This document shows, one piece after another, positions 1-9,277 of a stretch of DNA of 9,277 nt. Source of the stretch: a virus (lineage: Duplodnaviria; Heunggongvirae; Uroviricota; Caudoviricetes); the IMG/VR virus record IMGVR_UViG_2526164632_000010; one strand, given 5' to 3'. A program made the translations under genes and the position numbers. The notes beneath the pieces are model-generated. The model was not told the origin of the DNA. It did no database searches and saw only the letters and a list, made by a program, of their open reading frames with translations. Each line of letters opens with the position of its first letter. Within the stretch, counting starts at the first letter, position 1.

Positions 1-306
1 AACGGGGGCAAAGAGGGGGTGCAAATTTTGCCGTTCCAGCAGATCACCGCAAAAGATGAGTTCATGAATGTTAAGGCGGCATCCCGTGATGATGTGCTGG
101 CTGCGCACCGTGTTCCGCCGCAACTGATGGGGGCGATGCCGGGCGAAAAAAGTGCGTTTGGTGATGTGGAGAAGGCCGCGCGGGTTTACGCAATTAACGA
201 GCTGATGCCCGTTATGGAGGCCATGAAGCACATCAATGACTGGCTTGGCGAAGAGGTGATCCGTTTTAACTCTTATGCTCTTCTTGATGAAAAAACAGCC
301 CCGTGA
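1..306 (+). CDS. Phage portal protein, C-terminal part (gene starts upstream of the window)
   Basis: Reading frame is open from base 1 to TGA at 304-306 (the listed ORF 19-306 is its GTG-initiated tail). Residues resemble the C-terminal region of P2/PBSX-type portal proteins by recall only. Convergent with the replication gene, as Q and A are in P2-like genomes. Followed immediately by a hairpin terminator. Confidence 0.5.
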   Translation, partial: NGGKEGVQILPFQQITAKDEFMNVKAASRDDVLAAHRVPPQLMGAMPGEKSAFGDVEKAARVYAINELMPVMEAMKHINDWLGEEVIRFNSYALLDEKTAP

Positions 307-322
307 TGGGGCTGTCCTTTTT
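295..322. terminator. Bidirectional intrinsic terminator between convergent genes
   Basis: Stem CAGCCCC (296-302) / GGGGCTG (308-314) with loop GTGAT containing the stop codon; flanked by an A-run upstream and a T-run downstream, so it is U-rich after the hairpin on both strands. Confidence 0.6.
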
Positions 323-845
323 ACCAGAGCTGAACCATTTTCTGGGTTCCGTCAGGCTTGAGATTATCAATTTCAGAGAAAACGTAATATTGAATGGCTT
401 CACAAACGGTGGTGTAGGGTGAATTACCTTCTTTAAGTGGCACGATATTATTATTAACGCGAACCTGTATTTCATCGTTATACATTGCGATCGAAAGAGG
501 AGTATGCACGAAGGCGACTTCGCCAGGTGTGTCGTCAACCACTGTCTCAATGCTGAAAATCAGTTTTCGCTCATCATTGCCGCCCCTTGCTTTGGGGGTA
601 GCGGCAGGGATCTGAGATAAAGGCATTCTGCGAAATCCTTCGGCTGCTTCCAGTCCGCATGAAACGTAATGCTGGCGATTACCGTCGCTATCTGTCCAGG
701 TCTGTGATGGCAGCTCCAGCGAGATTTCATAAGCATCAACAATGCCCTGGGCAAGGCGTACAAGCGGGGTCAGATCTTCATTGCGGCGAAAGCTCTCCTT
801 TACCTGCTCCCGTTTTTCTCTTAACTGCTTGTAATTAATGACCAT
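321..845 (-). CDS. Hypothetical protein, 174 aa (orphan cargo gene)
   Basis: ATG at 845..843 preceded by GGAGG with a 7-nt spacer. The listed 187-aa ORF starts at an upstream GTG without an RBS, so the shorter start is preferred. No family recognised; region looks AT-richer than the replication gene by eye. Its stop abuts the bidirectional terminator. Confidence 0.6.
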   Translation of the reverse strand: MVINYKQLREKREQVKESFRRNEDLTPLVRLAQGIVDAYEISLELPSQTWTDSDGNRQHYVSCGLEAAEGFRRMPLSQIPAATPKARGGNDERKLIFSIETVVDDTPGEVAFVHTPLSIAMYNDEIQVRVNNNIVPLKEGNSPYTTVCEAIQYYVFSEIDNLKPDGTQKMVQLW

Positions 846-875
846 AAGACAGCCTCCATTGATTTCTTTGCTCGT

Positions 876-904
876 ATTTTGCACTTACGAAGTATGGTCG
901 GCAA
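876..904 (-). promoter_or_regulatory. Predicted sigma70 promoter for the 174-aa gene
   Basis: On the minus strand: -35 TTGCCG (complement of 899-904), 17-nt spacer, -10 CAAAAT (complement of 876-881), about 25 nt upstream of the ATG. Sequence-only prediction. Confidence 0.3.
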
Positions 905-944
905 GGTGCCGTATCGCTGACGCGCTTCGCTTGTCTGCTGCTTC

Positions 945-969
945 GCCGGGGCATAAAAAATTTATGCCC
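945..969. repeat. Perfect inverted repeat, 11-bp arms with 3-nt centre (CGGGGCATAAA-AAA-TTTATGCCCCG)
   Basis: Read directly from the sequence. No U-tract follows on either strand, so it is not a classic terminator; candidate operator or RNA/DNA hairpin upstream of the 174-aa gene promoter. Confidence 0.7.
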
Positions 970-1257
970 CGACTCTCCAGCTCCTGTATCAATCAGATAA
1001 TTTCACGACGCCTTCCAGTTTATCGCCACCATCGACGGTCAGACTCTTACGCAATCCCACCACGTTGACTGTATGTTCTCGCTGCCTCAGTGCGATTTTG
1101 ACGGCCTTACCTTTCACCCCATCAAATCAAAAGCCCTCACGCCTTTTTCATGCTCAGCGTGAGAAATATGGCCATTCTGTTGTGTCTCTGCGACATCGTT
1201 CAGGGAATGCTATTTACCCCCTGAAACGCGGGCTGTTCCCCCGTCACCTGCGCGTAG

Positions 1258-1300
1258 AAAAAACGCGTTTTTTGTGCACGTACGGATCCTTGACGGATCC
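1258..1300. repeat. 16-bp perfect palindrome AAAAAACGCGTTTTTT followed by tandem ACGGATCC repeats
   Basis: Palindrome at 1258-1273; ACGGATCC at 1282-1289 and 1293-1300. Non-coding region. Confidence 0.6.
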
Positions 1301-1343
1301 AGCCGCCACGCGGGCCGGAAGTACAAAAAGTCGTTCAAAAAAA

Positions 1344-1373
1344 TTGTGCAAACTTGTGCACTATCGTGCAAAC
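1344..1373. repeat. Three (T/C)GTGCA motifs phased at 10-bp intervals
   Basis: TTGTGCAAAC (1344-1353), TTGTGCAC (1354-1361), TCGTGCAAAC (1364-1373). Helical-turn phasing suggests a protein-binding array; function unknown. Confidence 0.5.
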
Positions 1374-1396
1374 AAAAAAGCGCCTTATCGGCGCTT
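1371..1396 (-). terminator. Intrinsic terminator on the minus strand, just after the 89-aa ORF
   Basis: Minus-strand RNA would read AAGCGCC-GAUAA-GGCGCUU followed by UUUUGUUUG. Stem is 1378-1384/1390-1396. Only an A-rich tail follows on the plus strand. Confidence 0.6.
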
Positions 1397-1404
1397 CAAA
1401 AATA

Positions 1405-1674
1405 TCAATTGTTGCTGTGTATTAATCGCCAACCACGAACATATGCTTCATAAGCATCTCTGTGCCTTACAGTTCCAGCCTGGCTAAACGGAATGTTAGC
1501 TAAAACTAAATCATTCTGAGCCATAGCGCGTCCTTCAAGCGCATCTTTTATGCCTAGCTCAAAAGCACAGGCAGCGCATTTGTGCCGACCTTCTTGTCCT
1601 TGATATTCAGGGAGAGACAGAAATGTTGGGTTATAACGATGAGGGTTCTTGCAAATACCTGTTTTAGCCCGCAC
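1405..1674 (-). CDS. Hypothetical small protein, 89 aa (candidate effector of the antisense-regulated module)
   Basis: GTG start at 1674 with GAGGT about 9 nt upstream. An alternative internal start at ATG 1524 with AAGGA and a 6-nt spacer would give 39 aa. Terminator lies directly after the stop. No family recognised and no transmembrane segment. Confidence 0.4.
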   Translation of the reverse strand: MRAKTGICKNPHRYNPTFLSLPEYQGQEGRHKCAACAFELGIKDALEGRAMAQNDLVLANIPFSQAGTVRHRDAYEAYVRGWRLIHSNN

Positions 1675-1741
1675 TTTATTTACCTCATAGGAAAAATATG
1701 CGTGCCTTTACAGAGGTGCGTGTAAGCAATAAAATATACGA

Positions 1742-1838
1742 CGCACATTTTGATTTACTTCGGAAGGCACGCATATCAGGTTAAGTGAGTCCGACCGAGT
1801 TCTACGCCCCAATAGTTGCTGCTATTGGGGCGTTTTGC
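1742..1838 (+). ncRNA. Candidate antisense sRNA of about 95 nt, opposite the leader of the 89-aa gene
   Basis: Plus-strand promoter-like -35 TTTACA (1707-1712), 17-nt spacer, -10 TAAAAT (1730-1735). Ends at a strong terminator (1805-1832 stem plus TTTT). No plus-strand protein gene explains this terminator. Confidence 0.35.
1804..1838 (+). terminator. Intrinsic terminator on the plus strand
   Basis: Perfect 11-bp stem CGCCCCAATAG (1805-1815) / CTATTGGGGCG (1822-1832), loop TTGCTG, followed by TTTTGCAT. No U-tract on the minus strand. Confidence 0.65.
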
Positions 1839-1882
1839 ATGGACAATGCCGCGCAATTATCTTGTCGCTCACAATGCGAACG

Positions 1883-1910
1883 ATCTTACAAAAAGGCACA
1901 TTACTGTCAA
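1883..1910 (-). promoter_or_regulatory. Predicted sigma70 promoter driving the minus-strand leader and 89-aa ORF
   Basis: On the minus strand: consensus -35 TTGACA (complement of 1905-1910), 16-nt spacer, -10 TAAGAT (complement of 1883-1888). It sits in an AT-rich spacer containing several GATC sites. Confidence 0.4.
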
Positions 1911-2038
1911 GATAATTGATCGTTTTAATCGATAGATAATAGACAATCTATTTGTTTAACAGATCGATTATTGAAGTAAGTGCGCCAAATGGAATGATAC
2001 TGTTTCTATAAATGTGAGCATTTTTCGCGCAGATGCTT

Positions 2039-2350
2039 TTACCCAGGAAATAACGCCCGGATATTCCCAGCCATCTGGCTGGTTATCTTAGCCACTGGTG
2101 CAGACTGTGCTTCAAACTTTTTTGAGCTGATTTGTGTCACAGGTAACATCTCATCATCAGCCCATGCGGCCAGTCGGTAAGCCTCTGCCGGATTCGTCTT
2201 CAGAAGTGCCAGCCCGGCCAGAAAAGCCACGCGTTGGCCGCTTTTGCGGGCTTCTGGTGTAAGGCTGTCCAGCCAGGCGCATGCTTCTCCTTCGTTCTTG
2301 ACGGCAGCTGGCTTCAGATAGAAACTTATTCTTCTGGTTGGTGTCGTCAT
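2039..2350 (-). CDS. parR: ParR/StbB-like centromere-binding partition adaptor, 103 aa
   Basis: Immediately downstream of parM with a 4-nt gap. N-terminal RRISFYLKP...LDSLTPEARKSGQRVAFLAGLALLKTNP resembles plasmid R1 ParR (RRTIAFKLNP...LDSIPQGERSRLNRAALTAGLALYRQDP) as recalled. Confidence 0.8.
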   Translation of the reverse strand: MTTPTRRISFYLKPAAVKNEGEACAWLDSLTPEARKSGQRVAFLAGLALLKTNPAEAYRLAAWADDEMLPVTQISSKKFEAQSAPVAKITSQMAGNIRALFPG

Positions 2351-2354
2351 TGGT

Positions 2355-3314
2355 TTACTCCTTGTTCATTGCGTACAGCCCATTAACCAGAGCAAACTGT
2401 GGCACCCCGTCCGCGATGAAAGTCGCATTAACTCCGCAGGCTTCGCGGATAGCGGGTGCCACAATCTCCGCCCCTCCACCGACAACCATCACCCGCCCGT
2501 AACCGGAAAAACCCGCCAGCGCGCGGATCACTCGTTGTTTCAGTGTCTCCTCCTTTTCACGAATAACCGCCATCAGGCTGTTGTAATGCGCGTCATTGTG
2601 AATGTGCTGGCGCAGCCAGGCTTCATCGTGACGGTGCTCAATAATGGTATTGGCGATGTGGTGACTGGTACGCATACCGTTAGTGGCCATCACCGACAGC
2701 ACGGCATCAGCCATCAGGGAAACGCCTACGTTTGGATCGCAAAACACCTGGCTGATACCTGCCAGCTGCCCCTGAACCTTTGCCACATCCAGCGTGGTTC
2801 CGCCCAAATCCACAATCAGCAGGGATTCAAACGGACTCATGTCAGCCAGTGCCTTAAAGCCAGCCGGAATGGATTCAGGCATAACCCGTACGTTACGGAT
2901 AGTGAATGCTTCGCCGTTCTGGTACTCCACCGGGCGCATGACGTTCGCTTTTTTGCGGTTGATGTTGGCCATGTCCGGCTGTGCGTTTGTGTCGAAATAC
3001 TCGCTCAGTGGCAGGGTGACAACCACATCCACCTCCTGTGGCGTGATGCCTGATTTGACCAGCGCGTGATGAATGGCGATTACATTCACATCGCTGTACT
3101 GGTATTGCGTGTCAGTCGTCTGGACAAAACGATCGCTGACCGGATCAAAGCCATAGCGCACGCCATCAAGCATGTAGTTCGCGGGATGCGTGCCACCGAA
3201 CGGCGCAGACCATTCCGACTTGAAGCTGTTCGGGCTGATGGCGTTGCGGCGTTCGCCGTTCTCAGTCCATGCCAGCTTGATGTTGGTGGAGCCGTCGTCG
3301 ATACAAATTTTCAT
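2355..3314 (-). CDS. parM: ParM/StbA-like actin-type plasmid segregation ATPase, 319 aa
   Basis: ATG at 3314 with AAGGA 8 nt upstream. Motifs shared with R1 ParM as recalled: N-terminal IDDGSTNIKL, YSDVNVIAIHHAL, NRKKAN, VMPESIPAG, LIVDLGGTTLD, GVSL, GGGAE, LVNG. Confidence 0.93.
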   Translation of the reverse strand: MKICIDDGSTNIKLAWTENGERRNAISPNSFKSEWSAPFGGTHPANYMLDGVRYGFDPVSDRFVQTTDTQYQYSDVNVIAIHHALVKSGITPQEVDVVVTLPLSEYFDTNAQPDMANINRKKANVMRPVEYQNGEAFTIRNVRVMPESIPAGFKALADMSPFESLLIVDLGGTTLDVAKVQGQLAGISQVFCDPNVGVSLMADAVLSVMATNGMRTSHHIANTIIEHRHDEAWLRQHIHNDAHYNSLMAVIREKEETLKQRVIRALAGFSGYGRVMVVGGGAEIVAPAIREACGVNATFIADGVPQFALVNGLYAMNKE

Positions 3315-3344
3315 GTCGATTTTCCTTATGTTGGTTAATTAACC

Positions 3345-3457
3345 GTTTACGGGATTTTTAAATCCCGCTTTCGCCTGTTTTGTGCGCGCTTCATATATCG
3401 CGGCGCGTTTTTTGCTCATTTACGGGATTTGTGGATCCCGTTTCTGTCTGTTTTTTG
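3345..3457. repeat. Two imperfect 40-bp direct repeats, each with a CGGGAT...ATCCCG inverted repeat, upstream of parM
   Basis: Copy A at 3345-3384 and copy B at 3418-3457, about 30 of 40 positions identical, 73 bp apart. Copy A is intergenic; copy B overlaps the last codons of the replication gene. Position relative to parM matches a parC-like centromere/operator. Confidence 0.45.
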
Positions 3458-6198
3458 TTTCCACTGGTCAGGCCACCCTGCAGCAGGTCTGCTTTGCGGC
3501 TGGCGCGTTCAGTGGTTTCACTGATTCTCTGTGCGTGCTCTGCGTCGCGGATGGCGCGCAGCATGTCAGAAAGCACGGTAACGGGTGTTTTCATGGTGTT
3601 CTGATCCTGCTGAAGTGCGGATGCCAGGCGTGCGGCGGCTTCGGGGTCTGATGCCCCCAGCTGTGCCAGATAGCTGGCGACCGGGTTATGGCGGATCTCC
3701 GTGCTGCTTACGCCGTGATTACGGCTCAGGTGCTGCCAGAGCTGCGTGATTCGGCTGTCCGGGCGGGTATCCGGTTTGCGTACAATTTCATATCCCTGCG
3801 GTGCAATGATGCTGCCGTCAACGTACAGGCTGCCGCCCCGTAGCAGGTGCTGCATCTGCTGTTCACCGATATGCAGGCCGAGAGATTCGGCAGACTCCCG
3901 CCATTCTTTAGCGAGTAATTCGTGGTTATCAGGCAAAGGCCGCTGCTGTTTGCGGCTCTGTGTCCAGCTCTGCATTTCATCACTGCTGTTTTTTGCCTGT
4001 TTGTCACGAAGCGAACGCATCAGCGCCCGGCGTTCGTGCCGTTTCAGTGAGCGCATCCATTCGTTCACTTCAACGCCGTCAGGAAGCTGCGGCCACGGTG
4101 CTGGCCGTTCTTTCGACTGTTCTGTCCCGCTGTTGCCTGTTTCCTGTACACGGGGACAGTTATTGCCACGAGTCCAAGGGGCGGCAGGGCCGCCCTGAAG
4201 GTCAAAACCATTTTCGCGGGCGCTGTCTTCCGCTTCCGGTTTGCGTCTTACCAGCTTCCAGTTATCCGGATGCGTGCACACACGGGAGGATTCCCCGATG
4301 AGTGGTGACCAGATCCCGTAAATCTGTACGCTCTGTTCGCCGTAATCGTTCAGCTCATCGGCGAGGTCGTAGGCGGTGCGAATCAGGTAGTCTTTGCGTG
4401 GAACAAGTACGCCGCCCTGTTTCTCTATGTAGGTGGCAAAACATCCTGCATCAGCGGCAGCGAGTACCGCATCCATTGCGTCATCCTTCAGCCGTTGCGG
4501 GCCTTCCGGGTTGCGTGCCATCTGGCTGGCAAGGCGGCGGAGTTCACGCCACACCTGACGGGAGGGGATGCCAAAGAACTGGAACTGGCGGACCCGGTGA
4601 AGGCGCGCCCAGCCGATGGCGCGTTCCACGCTCTCGGCCATTGATTTTCCGGTTTCGTGGTCAACGCGTGGCTTGCCCGTTTTCTGGTCGATGCCATCCA
4701 CGGCGCGGCTGTCCAGGTTCTTTCCGATGTAGGTGGCGATGTAGCTGGTTGGTGTGCCTTTTGAGCCGTCTACGTACTCCGCCTTAAAACGCGGAGTTAT
4801 GTCATCGCCCAGCTCGTGGCGGTCTTCCTGAATGGCAATATCGCAGACGTGGGACACGATGGTTTCAATCTCGTCCGGATGTGCAAAGACCATCATATGC
4901 CAGTGCACGGTGCCGTCATGGTGAGGCTCCACCGTGCGGATGCCATACCAGCGCAGGCCGTCGCGGTTCAGTTTCTTGCGGACCGCCGCAAAAAACGTGT
5001 TAACCAGGTAATCGCTGGAGTCGCGCATGGTGGCCCCGTTCCATTTGGGATTCGGATGACCGTTCTCTGTTGTGGCGTGGTATTTTGACGGGCAGGTGAC
5101 AGTCAGAAACACCGCTTTGTCGCCACGGGCTTCGGCCAGAAGTTCCAGCCCCTTCATGGTGGCCATCATTTCTGCCTTACGGTGAACCGGGTTACTTACT
5201 CCCGCGTAATACACTGTCTCGAGATCAATCGTGAACCCGTCTTCGTTTTCCAGCATGAAACTTTTCAGGAAATCGCGTGTTTTCTCGCGCTGTGCGCGAA
5301 ACTCGCTTAACGCGTCCTGGCTCAGATAGGGTGATGTTTTTCTGGAAACCAGACAGGCGGCGCGGAGTTGTTCTTCTCTCCACTCGCAACGTAACAGCCA
5401 CAATTTGCGTTTCCACCATTCCGCACAGGTCAGGCGAAGGATTGCGCCCGGTAACAGTTCCGTATCCGGATCGCTCTTGTTCAGGGCTTCGTAATGTGGC
5501 GGCATGATGTGCAGGCGTAATGCGATACGGGCCAGCATCCGGTAAGCCTTCAACATTACATCCATGGTCAGCTCGCCATCTCTGGCACCAAAGCCATCGC
5601 AGAGTGTTTCGAAGGTGCTGCTGAACATCGCCGCCGTCATGGTGGCCAGCGTCTGTATCTGGTGCTTGTTGAGCTGCGGCAGGTAAAGCAAATCGTCCAG
5701 GCGTTCGCGCCCGGCAAGGGAGCGATAACCCGGTGTCAGCCAGCGCCCGTCAGTGCGATCCAGACGTTCGAATATTTTGCGCAGGGTCCCGCGCGCGTAG
5801 CGTTCAGCCTGCTGGTTCTTTTTACCTTTCTGGCGGTCAGATTCCTGTTTTTTGCGCAGGAAGGAGAGGTGGCGAATAAGCGGATCGCGCAGATAGGATG
5901 GCAGCAGGCGCAGCGAGGCCATGGCTTCATCCACCGCGCCGCGTACCTGCTTTCTGGCGTCTCCTGCCAGTGTGATGGTTTTGTCCTGTTTTTCCTGTGC
6001 GTCCAGGCTTTTATTAATCAGGTTGCCCAGCGGCGTGGCGGAGAACGCCGCATCAGCCATTTCCTGGCAGCGCTCGTTCTCTGCCCGGTAGGCATCCAGC
6101 CAGGAGGAAAGCGCGGATTCAGGAGCGGGGATCCCCGTTCCTTCACGCCCCACTGCGTGGCGCGGTTGCTGCCAGTCCCTGATGTACTCTGCCGTCAT
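3391..6198 (-). CDS. Rolling-circle replication initiator, P2 gpA family (HUH endonuclease), 935 aa
   Basis: HUH motif HWHMMVF near residue 431-437 and active-site-like tyrosine pair Y486/Y490 in SYIATYIGKNLD, the same Y-x3-Y spacing recalled for P2 A and phiX174 A. Long ORF; start is 6 nt after the stop of the preceding gene. Confidence 0.9.
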   Translation of the reverse strand: MTAEYIRDWQQPRHAVGREGTGIPAPESALSSWLDAYRAENERCQEMADAAFSATPLGNLINKSLDAQEKQDKTITLAGDARKQVRGAVDEAMASLRLLPSYLRDPLIRHLSFLRKKQESDRQKGKKNQQAERYARGTLRKIFERLDRTDGRWLTPGYRSLAGRERLDDLLYLPQLNKHQIQTLATMTAAMFSSTFETLCDGFGARDGELTMDVMLKAYRMLARIALRLHIMPPHYEALNKSDPDTELLPGAILRLTCAEWWKRKLWLLRCEWREEQLRAACLVSRKTSPYLSQDALSEFRAQREKTRDFLKSFMLENEDGFTIDLETVYYAGVSNPVHRKAEMMATMKGLELLAEARGDKAVFLTVTCPSKYHATTENGHPNPKWNGATMRDSSDYLVNTFFAAVRKKLNRDGLRWYGIRTVEPHHDGTVHWHMMVFAHPDEIETIVSHVCDIAIQEDRHELGDDITPRFKAEYVDGSKGTPTSYIATYIGKNLDSRAVDGIDQKTGKPRVDHETGKSMAESVERAIGWARLHRVRQFQFFGIPSRQVWRELRRLASQMARNPEGPQRLKDDAMDAVLAAADAGCFATYIEKQGGVLVPRKDYLIRTAYDLADELNDYGEQSVQIYGIWSPLIGESSRVCTHPDNWKLVRRKPEAEDSARENGFDLQGGPAAPWTRGNNCPRVQETGNSGTEQSKERPAPWPQLPDGVEVNEWMRSLKRHERRALMRSLRDKQAKNSSDEMQSWTQSRKQQRPLPDNHELLAKEWRESAESLGLHIGEQQMQHLLRGGSLYVDGSIIAPQGYEIVRKPDTRPDSRITQLWQHLSRNHGVSSTEIRHNPVASYLAQLGASDPEAAARLASALQQDQNTMKTPVTVLSDMLRAIRDAEHAQRISETTERASRKADLLQGGLTSGNKKQTETGSTNPVNEQKTRRDI

Positions 6199-6204
6199 AG
6201 TGAT

Positions 6205-6570
6205 TTACTTCGTTATGCCATTCAGGGTGTCGCGGCAGACTGTAGCCAGCCGCTGAATTTCCAGCACGGTGTCTTCTGTGTCGGCATGGCGATGTGTGAT
6301 GCGGATGCTGTCGGCAATCACATCGACGATTGCAGAGGATGGGCGCTGGTAAATGCCAATAACGGACGGGGTGCCACCTTCAATGCGGTAAAGCCTGTAA
6401 TTTCCCTCGTGGCTGTCAATCATGTAGCGACCATCAATAACAATCTTTCCGTCAGCGAGCTGCGGTACAGGCAGGGATTTCAGGTACATGTCATAACGTT
6501 CACGCACGCGAACGGCAAGATCACGTTCTGTGTTGAGCAGGTATTCAAGAAAGTCGTTGGCGAGAATCAT
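6205..6570 (-). CDS. Hypothetical protein, 121 aa (early operon, directly upstream of the replication gene)
   Basis: ATG at 6570 with AAGAGGA about 8 nt upstream; tightly linked to the replication gene. No family recognised. Confidence 0.6.
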   Translation of the reverse strand: MILANDFLEYLLNTERDLAVRVRERYDMYLKSLPVPQLADGKIVIDGRYMIDSHEGNYRLYRIEGGTPSVIGIYQRPSSAIVDVIADSIRITHRHADTEDTVLEIQRLATVCRDTLNGITK

Positions 6571-6642
6571 TGCGGCAATCCTCTTGTTACAGATGTGCGA
6601 AGGCCTCCCGCCGCAAGGTGCAGGAAAGGCCCGGAACAGGAA

Positions 6643-6873
6643 TTAATGGAGTTTGTTTTGCTGCTGGATGAGCTGCTGAAGCTCGCGCAGATCATCCGCC
6701 AGATAACTGAAAACAGCGGATGAATAGAGGTTTGAAAGTTCGCAGCTACGCTCATGCAGCATATTGATGTGCATGATTTGCGCGACGCGTGATGCGCGGG
6801 AAAGTCTGCGGTTGATTTCAGTCTGGATGTGACGACGCTCCGCGATAGTGCGGTGCTGTTTGCGGTTTGCCAT
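6643..6873 (-). CDS. Hypothetical small basic protein, 76 aa (possible regulator)
   Basis: ATG at 6873 with AGAGG and a 7-nt spacer. Basic N-terminus and helical-looking sequence. An overlapping 205-aa ORF in another frame is low-complexity and was rejected. Confidence 0.55.
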   Translation of the reverse strand: MANRKQHRTIAERRHIQTEINRRLSRASRVAQIMHINMLHERSCELSNLYSSAVFSYLADDLRELQQLIQQQNKLH

Positions 6874-7050
6874 GGTGTGGCCTCTACGTGTGTAAGTTTT
6901 GAAAACTCACCATCCAGAGCTGCGAAACTGTGGGTGGCGAGACGTACGAGGTTCGCAGTACCGGCAAACGCAGAACCCGGCCCGACCGAAGTCGGCCCCG
7001 TACGCCCCACCATAATTCTGATGCGAAAAAGACGTGGCGATACAGTACGC

Positions 7051-7073
7051 ACAAAAAAACCGCTGGCGCGGTT
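7051..7073 (-). terminator. Candidate intrinsic terminator or attenuator inside the early operon (minus strand)
   Basis: Minus-strand RNA would read AACCGC-GCCA-GCGGUU followed by UUUUUGU. Located about 120 nt downstream of the 99-aa gene and upstream of the 76-aa gene. Confidence 0.45.
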
Positions 7074-7195
7074 GTGCGCTACGTTTGTCAGCGGGCTGCG
7101 AAACCCGGCACCCGTTTTATGAGGTGCAGCGGAAATGTAACCTGACTGATTGCGGCATGGCAAGCGGTTTTTTTGTGTGTGCATGTTCTGGTTTC

Positions 7196-7495
7196 TTAGT
7201 GGTTCAGAAAAAAATCAAAAACCTTGTCAATGCGTTGCAGCAGCTCTTGCTGTATTGCTTCCGGCGTTTCCGGTTCGCCTGGCGCCTCCAACGTCGCGCA
7301 GAAATCCTCGATTTCATGACGGAGCGTCAGGCGAATGGCGAGAGGTGTGGTTCTGGCGTGCTCCAGCTCATCCAGCAGCGCCAGCACAGCAGACGGCGAG
7401 AGCATTGCGCGAAACGCCAGTAATTTTTGAGGCGTTGCCATTCGTTGCAGGTCAGTCGCCAGTTCGCGTAATTCCTTGTGGTTGATGGCGCTCAT
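7196..7495 (-). CDS. Hypothetical protein, 99 aa
   Basis: Start overlaps the stop of the upstream 81-aa gene (translational coupling). Acidic, helical-looking. The N-terminal ELRELA region is vaguely reminiscent of Ea22-like prophage proteins; that is a weak impression only. Confidence 0.6.
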   Translation of the reverse strand: MSAINHKELRELATDLQRMATPQKLLAFRAMLSPSAVLALLDELEHARTTPLAIRLTLRHEIEDFCATLEAPGEPETPEAIQQELLQRIDKVFDFFLNH

Positions 7496-7737
7496 GCTCT
7501 GGCTTCCTTCAGTAGCTGGTTAAACATGTTGGTAAGTGGATTGCCACACCCGAACGGCATCGGGTTTATCTGGTAAGAAAAGCGACCGCCTGTTTTGCGC
7601 TCTTTTCTTATGACTGAACCGCTGCGCCAGAGTCGGCGTAACTCCGCATTAATGGCTGTGGTTGGGGTATTCAGTGCTGCGGCGATTTCTCCACCGCTAC
7701 ACCCCGGATTGGCGGCAATATAGTCCAGAATGGTCAT
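7492..7737 (-). CDS. Putative winged-helix DNA-binding protein, 81 aa
   Basis: Start overlaps the stop of the upstream 67-aa gene. Sequence pattern (GEIAAALNTPTTAINAELRRLWRSGSVIRKER) looks like a helix-turn-helix recognition helix followed by a wing; inference from sequence only. Confidence 0.6.
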   Translation of the reverse strand: MTILDYIAANPGCSGGEIAAALNTPTTAINAELRRLWRSGSVIRKERKTGGRFSYQINPMPFGCGNPLTNMFNQLLKEARA

Positions 7738-7937
7738 CTGCGTGACTCCTGTACCTGTCGGATAAGGTTCACCCGCACCACATTCGTGGCGCAGAAGTAA
7801 GTGCCGTCAGTGAGATAGATGTGATGTGCATCCTTTTCTGAACGGTGTTTGTCGATTGTGGTAATCAGGCGTTCGTCGACTTCGTATTCCCGCCCTCTGG
7901 AGGTAAAACGAACGACAGGAAAATGCTTAATTGCCAT
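7734..7937 (-). CDS. Hypothetical protein, 67 aa (first gene after a promoter-like intergenic region)
   Basis: ATG at 7937 preceded by AAGGAGG with a 4-nt spacer. No family recognised. Confidence 0.6.
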   Translation of the reverse strand: MAIKHFPVVRFTSRGREYEVDERLITTIDKHRSEKDAHHIYLTDGTYFCATNVVRVNLIRQVQESRR

Positions 7938-8023
7938 TACGCCTCCTTGGCGTGTGCGAATACCTCCGCGAATGCGGATTGTTTTTACATTTTCTTATTT
8001 AATCTGTGGTTTTATTTGTTCTG

Positions 8024-8137
8024 TTATTCGCCAGTGAAAAAGCGTTCAATCTTTTTTATTGAATGAATAATTCGCATAATCCCAATAGCGCAGGCCACCG
8101 AAATAATCAGAACAAGCCATGAGATAAATATACTCAT
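8024..8137 (-). CDS. Small predicted membrane peptide, 37 aa (MSIFISWLVLIISVACAIGIMRIIHSIKKIERFFTGE)
   Basis: ATG at 8137..8135 overlaps the TGA stop of the upstream 80-aa gene (ATGA overlap). GGGGA lies about 8 nt upstream. One hydrophobic helix of about 19 residues followed by a basic tail. Not in the supplied ORF track because it is short; translated by hand. Confidence 0.35.
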   Translation of the reverse strand: MSIFISWLVLIISVACAIGIMRIIHSIKKIERFFTGE

Positions 8138-8376
8138 GCGATATTCCCCAGCTTATACGGTTCAATATGTTCCCCGCATTCTGCGGCACAGATCAGCTCG
8201 GAAAGTTCGTTAAGTGCATCCAGATCATCAGCGTAAAAAGCTACGTCATACAGACTTCGGATTGCTCTGGTCAATGAGTCACGGGCCGCACGTTCAGCAT
8301 GAGCGCCTGATGCACTTAAGCGAAAATAAAAACGCTCAAGTGCTTTGTTAATGAGAGTTTTATATTCTTTGCCCAT
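8134..8376 (-). CDS. Hypothetical protein, 80 aa
   Basis: ATG at 8376 preferred over the GTG at 8379 listed in the ORF track; AAAGGG about 8 nt upstream. No family recognised. Confidence 0.55.
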   Translation of the reverse strand: MGKEYKTLINKALERFYFRLSASGAHAERAARDSLTRAIRSLYDVAFYADDLDALNELSELICAAECGEHIEPYKLGNIA

Positions 8377-8460
8377 CACAACGCCCTTTAATCTGCTTTC
8401 TGTATTTCAGCTTCTGAATCCATACAAATAATTTCGATATAGGGTTCATCGCCATTAACC

Positions 8461-8664
8461 TAGCGTGCCTTTTCAGCTTCGCTAATGATTTCTCGTACGG
8501 TCTGGTACGGAAGTTCCACAAGCAGTCGCGTGCCGTTCAGATAAACGTAAGTGGCTTCGTCGGCTCCGTTTTTACCCGCCGGAGTCACTCCGTCAATAGC
8601 GGATGCACGTAATAACAGTTCACCGCGAAAATCAATAAAACGGATAAATACACCTTGTGCATGG
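8461..8664 (-). pseudogene. C-terminal fragment (about 67 codons) of a gene truncated by the IS2 insertion
   Basis: Open frame runs from the IS2 boundary (8664) to TAG at 8463..8461 and encodes ...GELLLRASAIDGVTPAGKNGADEATYVYLNGTRLLVELPYQTVREIISEAEKAR, which looks protein-like. There is no start codon inside the window on this side of IS2. Confidence 0.4.
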
Positions 8665-9277
8665 TGGATTTGCCCCTATATTTCCAGACATCTGTTATCA
8701 CTTAACCCATTACAAGCCCGCTGCCGCAGATATTCCCGTGGCGAGCGATAACCCAGCGCACTATGCGGATGCCATTCGTTATAATGCTCGAACGCCTCTG
8801 CAAGGTTCTTTGCTGCCGTTAACCCGTCTGGTTTGGGCATGATACTGATGTAGTCACGCTTTATCGTTTTCACGAAGCTCTCTGCTATTCCGTTACTCTC
8901 CGGACTCCGCACCGCCGTGTTCTTCGGTTCAAGTCCCAACATCCGGGCGAACTGGCGTGTTTCATTAGCCCGGTAGCATGAACCATTATCCGTCAGCCAC
9001 TCCACTGGAGACGACGGAAGATCGTTGCCGAAGCGGCGTTCCACCGCTCCCAGCATGACGTCCTGTACTGTTTCACTGTTGAAGCCGCCGGTAGTCACCG
9101 CCCAGTGCAGTGCCTCACGATCACAGCAGTCCAGCGCGAACGTGACACGCAGTCTCTCTCCGTTATCACAGCAGAACTCGAACCCGTCAGAGCACCATCG
9201 CTGATTGCTTTCTTTCACGGCCACTCTGCCTGTATGTGCCCGTTTCGATGGCGGTACAGCAGGTTTTCGCTCAAGCA
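8665..9277 (-). mobile_element. IS2 (IS3 family), right-end 613 bp; the element continues beyond the window
   Basis: Terminal sequence TGGATTTGCCCCTATATTTCCAGACATCTGTTATCACTTAACCC starting at 8665 matches the IS2 right inverted repeat as recalled. Contains the 3' part of insD. Confidence 0.9.
8676..9277 (-). CDS. insD: IS2 transposase OrfB (InsD), C-terminal part; 5' end outside the window
   Basis: C-terminal sequence ...[41 protein letters not shown] matches IS2 InsD by recall. Frame stays open from 9224 to the window edge. Confidence 0.9.

Follow-up and report, generated by a model that had tools for sequence, protein, structure and literature searches.

A P88-like prophage segment of Escherichia coli with two variable slots, a probable cos region and a conserved partition cassette between the portal and replication genes

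The stretch of DNA analysed here, IMG/VR virus record IMGVR_UViG_2526164632_000010 (9,277 nt; hereafter the window), begins with the end of a phage portal gene. This is the only credible gene on the plus strand; all other credible genes are located on the minus strand (Table 1). These include a gene for a 174-amino-acid (aa) protein, a small gene for an 89-aa protein, the partition genes parR and parM, a replication gene of the gpA family, and a series of early genes, the last of which is interrupted by insertion sequence IS2. The portal and replication genes are convergent and enclose an interval of 3,084 bp (307-3390). An earlier note on this DNA had described a P2-like prophage segment with about 3 kb of unrelated cargo between these two genes. 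According to our analysis, the window very probably derives from a P88-like (Xuanwuvirus, Peduoviridae) prophage of E. coli, of which it covers the early genes and the region near the packaging site; the portal-gpA interval consists of four parts, only two of which vary among relatives.

Identity and distribution of the prophage

The portal fragment (frame 1) matched the C-terminus of PHROG 68, 'portal protein' (E 2e-40), and residues 247-339 of P2 gpQ (47% identity, E 4.6e-28). Its match to the Pfam family Phage_portal (E 8.6e-8) was under the gathering score because the window holds only 101 aa of the portal protein. The 935-aa protein encoded at the other side of the interval covered the whole Phage_GPA profile and shared 31% identity with P2 gpA over 640 aa (E 3e-85). 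Judged from these protein similarities, the window is a P2-family segment with a gpQ-type portal and a gpA-type rolling-circle replication initiator, as the earlier note had proposed for both flanking genes.

In megablast searches, phage P88 and a dozen related Xuanwuvirus records displayed 94-95% nucleotide identity over 79-83% of the window. The values for P88 itself were 94.4% and 79%; gene order is also shared, which places the window in Xuanwuvirus. The chromosome of E. coli O111:H2 strain 12A is listed as 100.0% identical over positions 1-8665, with one CAG/TAG difference visible by eye, and a prophage of enterotoxigenic E. coli H10407 is 99.9% identical to the window. In strain 12A, the prophage terminates with an integrase gene adjoining yecA. 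Sequence related to window positions 1-3400 was detected in 1,442 of the 5,426 complete E. coli genomes, and all but two of the matching places in these genomes were chromosomal (1,711 of 1,713).

A match was also obtained to a contig labelled as Vagococcus sp. WN89Y (Firmicutes), with 97% protein identity for ParM and 94-96% DNA identity across the conserved segments of positions 1-3500. The assembly in question probably contains contaminating DNA of enterobacterial origin.

Organization of the portal-gpA interval

The boundaries within the interval were defined by blastn comparison of window positions 1-3500 with nine related loci. Three segments were conserved: 1-281/288, 917-1370/1384, and 2044/2046 onward. 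Variation was confined to positions 289-916 and ~1371/1385-2043. On this alignment, the interval is composed of four parts, namely slot A, a conserved block with the probable cos, slot B, and a parR-parM cassette. The view of the whole interval as a known variable locus thus holds for the two slots and fails for the remainder. The ~1.35-kb parR-parM cassette and ~0.47 kb of conserved non-coding sequence, both common to all close relatives, are not unrelated cargo, and about 60% of the interval is conserved core while the other 40% is not.

P2 Tin and Old were searched against the window and gave best E values of 0.65-1.1 only, in agreement with the expectation that none of the cargo resembles these proteins. 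PADLOC models matched none of the five interval proteins, nor gpA or four early-gene products, so that the suggested anti-phage content of the cargo did not find support. The earlier reading is right in kind and overstates the amount of cargo.

Table 1. Genes and other features of the window (positions are those of the window).
Feature	Position	Strand	Basis or remark
Portal gene (gpQ homologue), C-terminal 101 codons	1-306	+	PHROG 68 C-terminus; 'phage portal protein' WP_000087825.1 in strain 12A
Slot A, present-or-absent insert with 174-aa gene (321-845; ATG at 845 after GGAGG)	289-916	-	
Terminator-like hairpin between portal stop and 174-aa gene stop	290-320	terminator-like on +	Inverted repeat; terminator scan match 295-315
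Conserved non-coding block, probable cos	917-1384		LR595891.1 record ends map to 1325/1326
Slot B, self-contained cassette	1385-2043 (start approximate)	-	Replaced by unrelated genes in relatives
Terminator of slot B	1397-1377	-	Terminator scan
89-aa open reading frame, GTG start, GAGG ribosome-binding site	1405-1674	-	Two copies of a ~45-aa unit
Structured leader of slot B	1880-1675	-	Fold z = -4.65
Promoter-like signal of slot B	1910-1883	-	Promoter scan
Candidate ~100-nt antisense RNA opposite the 89-aa leader	1740-1842	+	Prediction only
parR, 103 aa, type II partition adaptor	2039-2350	-	PF10784 Plasmid_stab_B, E 1e-23; PHROG 2515 partition protein
parM, 319 aa, actin-like partition ATPase	2355-3314	-	PF06406, E 3e-82; PF21523, E 2e-68
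Candidate parC/operator: two 39-nt repeats (3346-3384, 3419-3457), each with a CGGGAT-N6/7-ATCCCG palindrome	3346-3457		Repeat scan
gpA-family replication initiator, 935 aa	3391-6198	-	PF05840 Phage_GPA, whole profile, E 8e-129; PHROG 91 'nicking at origin of replication'
Early gene, 121 aa	6205-6570	-	PHROG 3237
'Derepression protein' gene, 76 aa	6643-6873	-	PF25738, E 4e-8, above gathering score; PHROG match
C4 antisense RNA	6930-7017	-	Rfam, 80.4 bits (gathering score 45)
isrK RNA	7053-7127	-	Rfam, 69.6 bits (gathering score 50)
Early-operon genes: 99 aa, MarR-type winged-helix 81 aa, 67 aa, 114-nt open reading frame, DUF4754	7196-8379	-	Pfam, PHROG; strain 12A annotation
Early gene, 95 aa when intact	8389-8664	-	First four codons lost to IS2; CAG-to-TAG at 8462-8460 relative to strain 12A
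IS2, right-end portion with C-terminal part of transposase InsD	8665-9277	-	rve and rve_3 domains

Slot A and the conserved block

Two states of slot A were recognized among the relatives. In the 'empty' state, ~21 nt join the portal end to the conserved block; this arrangement occurs in P88, P88_4B11, the circular record NZ_CP148288.1, and four others. The 'filled' state, with the 174-aa gene, is found in the window, an ST131 phage, and a Salmonella locus, and the insert is present in 397 complete genomes. The 174-aa gene would end at a terminator shared with the portal gene. Its product displayed no match to a known defence family among the PADLOC models.

The block that follows is 91-97% identical in all P88-like records, contains no credible open reading frame (ORF), and is partly conserved in other P2-like prophages and in Enterobacter phage phiT5282H. 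Plus-strand ORFs across 838-1487 were rejected as genes, since they sit in this conserved non-coding block. The linear record LR595891.1 (phage P88_4B11) has a P2-like layout, with Q ~400 nt from the record start, and its two ends abut between window positions 1325 and 1326. The block therefore probably contains the terminase recognition and cleavage region, cos, whose position at ~1325 is deduced from the ends of this record.

With cos at this site, the portal gene and gene A would converge on it as they do in P2, and each slot would be situated near one end of the linear virion genome and beyond the limits of the essential operons, a location in which swapping of cassettes by recombination may be tolerated without harm. 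Expression of the slot cassettes in the lysogen is probably driven by promoters of their own, which is also the case for old and tin of P2.

The parR-parM cassette

The cassette follows directly after gene A, and the parR gene is located directly downstream of parM, with a gap of 4 nt. The parM product matched the structure of plasmid R1 ParM (1mwk) over its full length, with ~50% identity (E 8.5e-93). Among sequenced phages, ParM of this kind was found only in the P88-like group (94.7-98.7% identity, 14 records) and in the P1-like phage D6 (48%), while the nearest ParM of a true plasmid is ~52% identical. This distribution, together with the distance to plasmid proteins, suggests that parMR is an old, fixed feature of the clade and not a recent pickup. 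Accordingly, parMR should be withdrawn from the list of cargo and assigned to the clade core, as ParM identity does not fall below 94.7% in any P88-like phage record. A scan of genome contigs with ParM revealed three loci, all at least 97% identical.

The pN/pS ratio (non-synonymous to synonymous polymorphism) of parM was 0.04-0.08 in comparisons with six relatives; by this estimate, the gene is under strong purifying selection. ParR is more variable than ParM: its first 60 residues are conserved, as is a NIRALFP motif at the C-terminus, and the linker varies. At least two allelic types of ParR occur, distinguished by the linker and by the DNA-binding region at the N-terminus; ParM is nearly constant, and so are the half-sites of the palindromes described below.

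Upstream of parM, two 39-nt repeats located 73 bp apart constitute the sole repeated motif: one copy is in the 76 bp that separate gene A from parM, and the other falls within the terminal codons of A; no iteron array was found in this region. The palindrome half-sites are kept and the spacers vary across 10 loci, a pattern that suits a protein-binding site. ParR would bind these two palindromes, and ParM filaments would then push replicated circular phage genomes apart while the phage is episomal, that is, before integration, after excision, or in a rare plasmid state. A role of ParMR in the episomal phase of a phage that otherwise integrates is a proposal to which we hold only loosely.

Two relatives have lost most of the cassette. 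In E. coli UPEC132 (locus L014, 1757-2693), parR and most of parM are deleted and phd/doc is present instead. In E. coli 2013C-3181 (locus L015, 1138-3124), a PIN/helix-turn-helix (HTH) pair is in place and only fragments of parR and parM remain. Judged from these replacements, even the 'fixed' partition cassette is open to overwriting from the side of slot B.

Slot B and the 89-aa protein

Slot B is a multi-allelic site, at which relatives carry very different gene sets. P88 has four small ORFs, including one for a ClpX-type zinc finger protein. Other relatives possess DUF4760 and a hypothetical protein, DUF3800, or XF1762 or Ead/Ea22-like genes. In E. coli 1303 (locus L012, 1143-2863), slot B contains two successive genes, the first for a hypothetical protein of 399 aa and the second for a TOPRIM protein of 172 aa; the pair is reminiscent of split OLD-family or PARIS-type defence systems. 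The allele present in the window was detected in 166 of the 5,426 complete genomes; in all 30 sampled matches, the matching region overlaps an annotated parR.

The single gene of this allele encodes the 89-aa protein. It was left unannotated by the Prokaryotic Genome Annotation Pipeline in strain 12A and several other genomes; judged by its relatives and the residues conserved among them, it is nonetheless a real gene. Its leader is strongly structured (fold z = -4.65). The exhaustive protein search revealed 172 distant relatives of the product, and the word-indexed search gave only near-identical ones. Columns conserved across the relatives are C8, H12, R30-H31-x-C33-x2-C36, S64-Q65, and R70-H71. 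Alignment of the longer relatives made it apparent that a unit of ~45 aa occurs twice; in the 89-aa protein, the first copy keeps a putative zinc site (C8/H12/C33/C36), and the second copy is without its cysteines. The protein is hydrophilic. Its structure model reached a predicted local distance difference test score (pLDDT) of 89, and the modelled fold had no match in PDB or BFVD. Likewise, no PADLOC, Pfam, or NCBIfam model matched the protein.

The longer relatives (n=55) carry additional domains: the nuclease-like domain NOV_C in 25, HNH or HNH_2 in 14, DndB in 3, and WYL in 1. The nuclease parts of these proteins match the PADLOC models PDC-S36, PD-T4-1, and TmtA.

On the opposite strand, a candidate antisense RNA is predicted. 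It is preceded by a promoter-like site at 1707-1735 (10 of 12 matches) and contains a terminator with a perfect 12-bp stem (1804-1833) followed by a T run; its fold has z = -3.4. Promoter-like matches are no commoner in the window than in shuffled sequence.

The 89-aa protein might be a free-standing copy of an undescribed ~45-aa zinc-binding repeat (C-x3-H...RH-x-C-x2-C), which elsewhere forms the N-terminal module of predicted NOV_C/PDC-S36 and HNH defence nucleases. That it constitutes a new anti-defence decoy or a small exclusion factor, possibly under control of the antisense RNA, is a highly speculative proposal, to which we give only a slight chance.

Replication gene, early operon, and IS2

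The gpA homologue comprises 935 aa, as compared to 761 aa in P2. The last ~235 residues (window 3391-4095) have no counterpart in the P2 alignment, and this C-terminal extension overlaps one of the two palindromic repeats upstream of parM.

Within the early operon, isrK and then C4 form an RNA module (6930-7140, minus strand) directly upstream of the gene for the 76-aa derepression protein. As far as can be read from the covariance-model matches and gene order, this module is an RNA switch of the P1 immI and Gifsy-1 isrK-anrP type in a P2-family phage. An ORF for 205 aa (6567-7184, minus strand) was rejected because it overlaps the C4 and isrK RNA genes as well as the 76-aa gene. The same stretch is annotated in related records as encoding a hypothetical protein or a product 'similar to ash family protein'; most likely, the ORF is an artefact of gene calling across the RNA genes.

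The sequence from 8665 onward is 99.4-99.8% identical to annotated IS2 copies, which identifies it as part of this element; the end of IS2 is at 8665. IS2 has the same orientation as the early genes and lies between the early promoter region and the replication genes. A search for the junction at 8665 found it in no complete E. coli genome of the collection.

Alternative explanations

The interpretation offered by the earlier note, extended to the whole 3-kb interval, would be that all of it is variable accessory cargo, probably anti-phage and equivalent to tin and old. The position indeed matches the tin/old locus of P2 beside cos and the hotspot published by Rousset et al. (2022; PMC9122126), and slot B of relatives contains defence-like genes such as the TOPRIM pair, the PIN/HTH pair, and Phd/Doc. 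However, the alignment with the nine related loci refutes this explanation in part, as conservation in all close relatives extends to the parR-parM cassette and the probable cos block (~1.8 of the 3.08 kb). ParMR, moreover, is a DNA segregation machine and not a known defence system, and the PADLOC search returned nothing for the cargo proteins. We therefore regard an all-cargo interval as quite unlikely. The presence of ParMR could instead mean that the normal, or at least a frequent, state of P88-like prophages is that of a low-copy plasmid. Plasmid maintenance was suggested by Rousset et al. (PMC9122126). The strong purifying selection on parM points in the same direction, as does the replacement of parMR by phd/doc in strain UPEC132. 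The phd/doc pair is the plasmid addiction module of P1. A closed circular 'plasmid' of 34,461 bp, NZ_CP148288.1, corresponds to an entire P88-like phage genome with genes for integrase, cox, and repressor; it may represent either a genuine episome or a phage that had been excised and was replicating in the culture used for sequencing. The latter option takes weight from this record as evidence for plasmid life. In addition, integrase is kept in all full relatives examined, the circular record among them, and the matching places in complete genomes are chromosomal with two exceptions, which makes regular maintenance as a plasmid unlikely. Decay of the prophage, with a gene content that has no current role, would be indicated by IS2 inside the early operon, by the premature TAG in the adjacent early gene, and by the parM and gpA pseudogenes of some relatives. 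Yet every other ORF of the window is full length in comparison with P88 and strain 12A, and parM and the 174-aa gene are conserved across lineages, which shows that they are under selection. The window is otherwise 100.0% identical to prophages without IS2, and this near-identity implies that the insertion is recent. A decaying, non-functional prophage thus appears rather doubtful.

For slot B, the 89-aa gene and the predicted antisense RNA might together form an RNA-controlled module of the toxin/antitoxin-like or anti-defence kind, the protein acting on or mimicking the N-terminal zinc-repeat domain of predicted defence nucleases. In 39 of the 55 longer relatives, the repeat domain is joined to a nuclease domain (NOV_C or HNH), and the nuclease parts match candidate defence models, which would agree with such a role; so would one free-standing homologue located amid toxin-antitoxin gene pairs, and the combination of a structured leader with a promoter-like site and terminator on the opposite strand. 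On the other hand, the protein is hydrophilic, unlike classical type I toxins, and is itself matched by none of the models searched, while the antisense RNA is a consensus-scan prediction from promoter-like matches of a frequency also seen in shuffles. Such a module is, in our opinion, very unlikely.

The preferred interpretation, a P88-like prophage segment with two slots around a probable cos and a fixed partition cassette, has to be weighed against several observations. The 19-mer of P2 cos is absent from the window at up to 3 mismatches, and alignment of the P2 cos junction to the window gave no match; the conserved block differs from the P2 cos sequence. The cos position is taken from the ends of one database record. 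The parC of plasmid R1 consists of ten 11-bp iterons; only two palindromes are present here, one of them within the end of gene A, so a centromere role for them is a guess. Some relatives have lost parMR altogether. Finally, the chromosomal location of nearly all matching places leaves no obvious job for a partition system in the usual state of the prophage.

Significance and comparison with known systems

The locus, its variability, and the partition system are already known from the literature. The gpA-gpQ locus of P2-like phages was described as a defence hotspot by Rousset et al. (2022; PMC9122126), who found a partition system at this site in about one-quarter of P2-like phages. The hotspot and partition systems within it were also described in PMC13586616. 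Protein accessions of the window locus were not found in the supplementary tables of Rousset et al. (2022), and, by the text and tables of that study, the 174-aa and 89-aa genes were not among the cargo tested. The 89-aa zinc-repeat domain is the only lead with some novelty. The general published picture is unchanged by our results; what they offer in practice is a corrected map of the locus in the large P88-like group, with two separate slots on either side of the probable cos and a fixed partition cassette. If everything between gpQ and gpA is counted as cargo, parMR is overcounted as accessory and two independent sites are merged. Two points deserve interest: the retention of a strongly constrained ParMR by a phage that integrates, and the role of the widespread 89-aa zinc-repeat domain.

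P88 shares with the window the order of portal, parR-parM, gpA, derepression gene, and early genes. It differs in the absence of the 174-aa gene and IS2, in the four other small ORFs that replace the 89-aa gene in slot B, and in the possession of two further genes; these encode a lipoprotein and a membrane protein and are located after the gene for the 76-aa derepression protein and before an ead/Ea22-like early gene, at a place that corresponds to window 6874-7195.

An antirepressor is expressed from the isrK promoter in Gifsy-1, and the RNA governs translation of this antirepressor (PMC4825925). The window resembles P1 immI (c4-icd-ant) and Gifsy-1 isrK-orf45-anrP in having isrK/C4 matches directly upstream of a small derepression-family gene. 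The predicted module of the window differs in being located inside a P2-family early operon, just upstream of the replication gene, and the derepression protein of 76 aa is unrelated in size to P1 Ant.

The partition cassette agrees with ParMRC of plasmid R1 in the full-length ParM match, the ParR family (PF10784), and the parM-parR order. It differs from the R1 system in being carried by an integrating phage and in having two palindromes instead of an R1-type iteron array.

With the gpA-gpQ hotspot of P2-like phages in general, the window shares the flanking genes, the position next to cos (a probable one in the window), and the kind of allelic diversity. In P2, old and tin occupy the locus and cos lies directly beside Q, whereas in the window the probable cos is located in the middle of the interval, between two variable slots, and parMR forms a fixed part.

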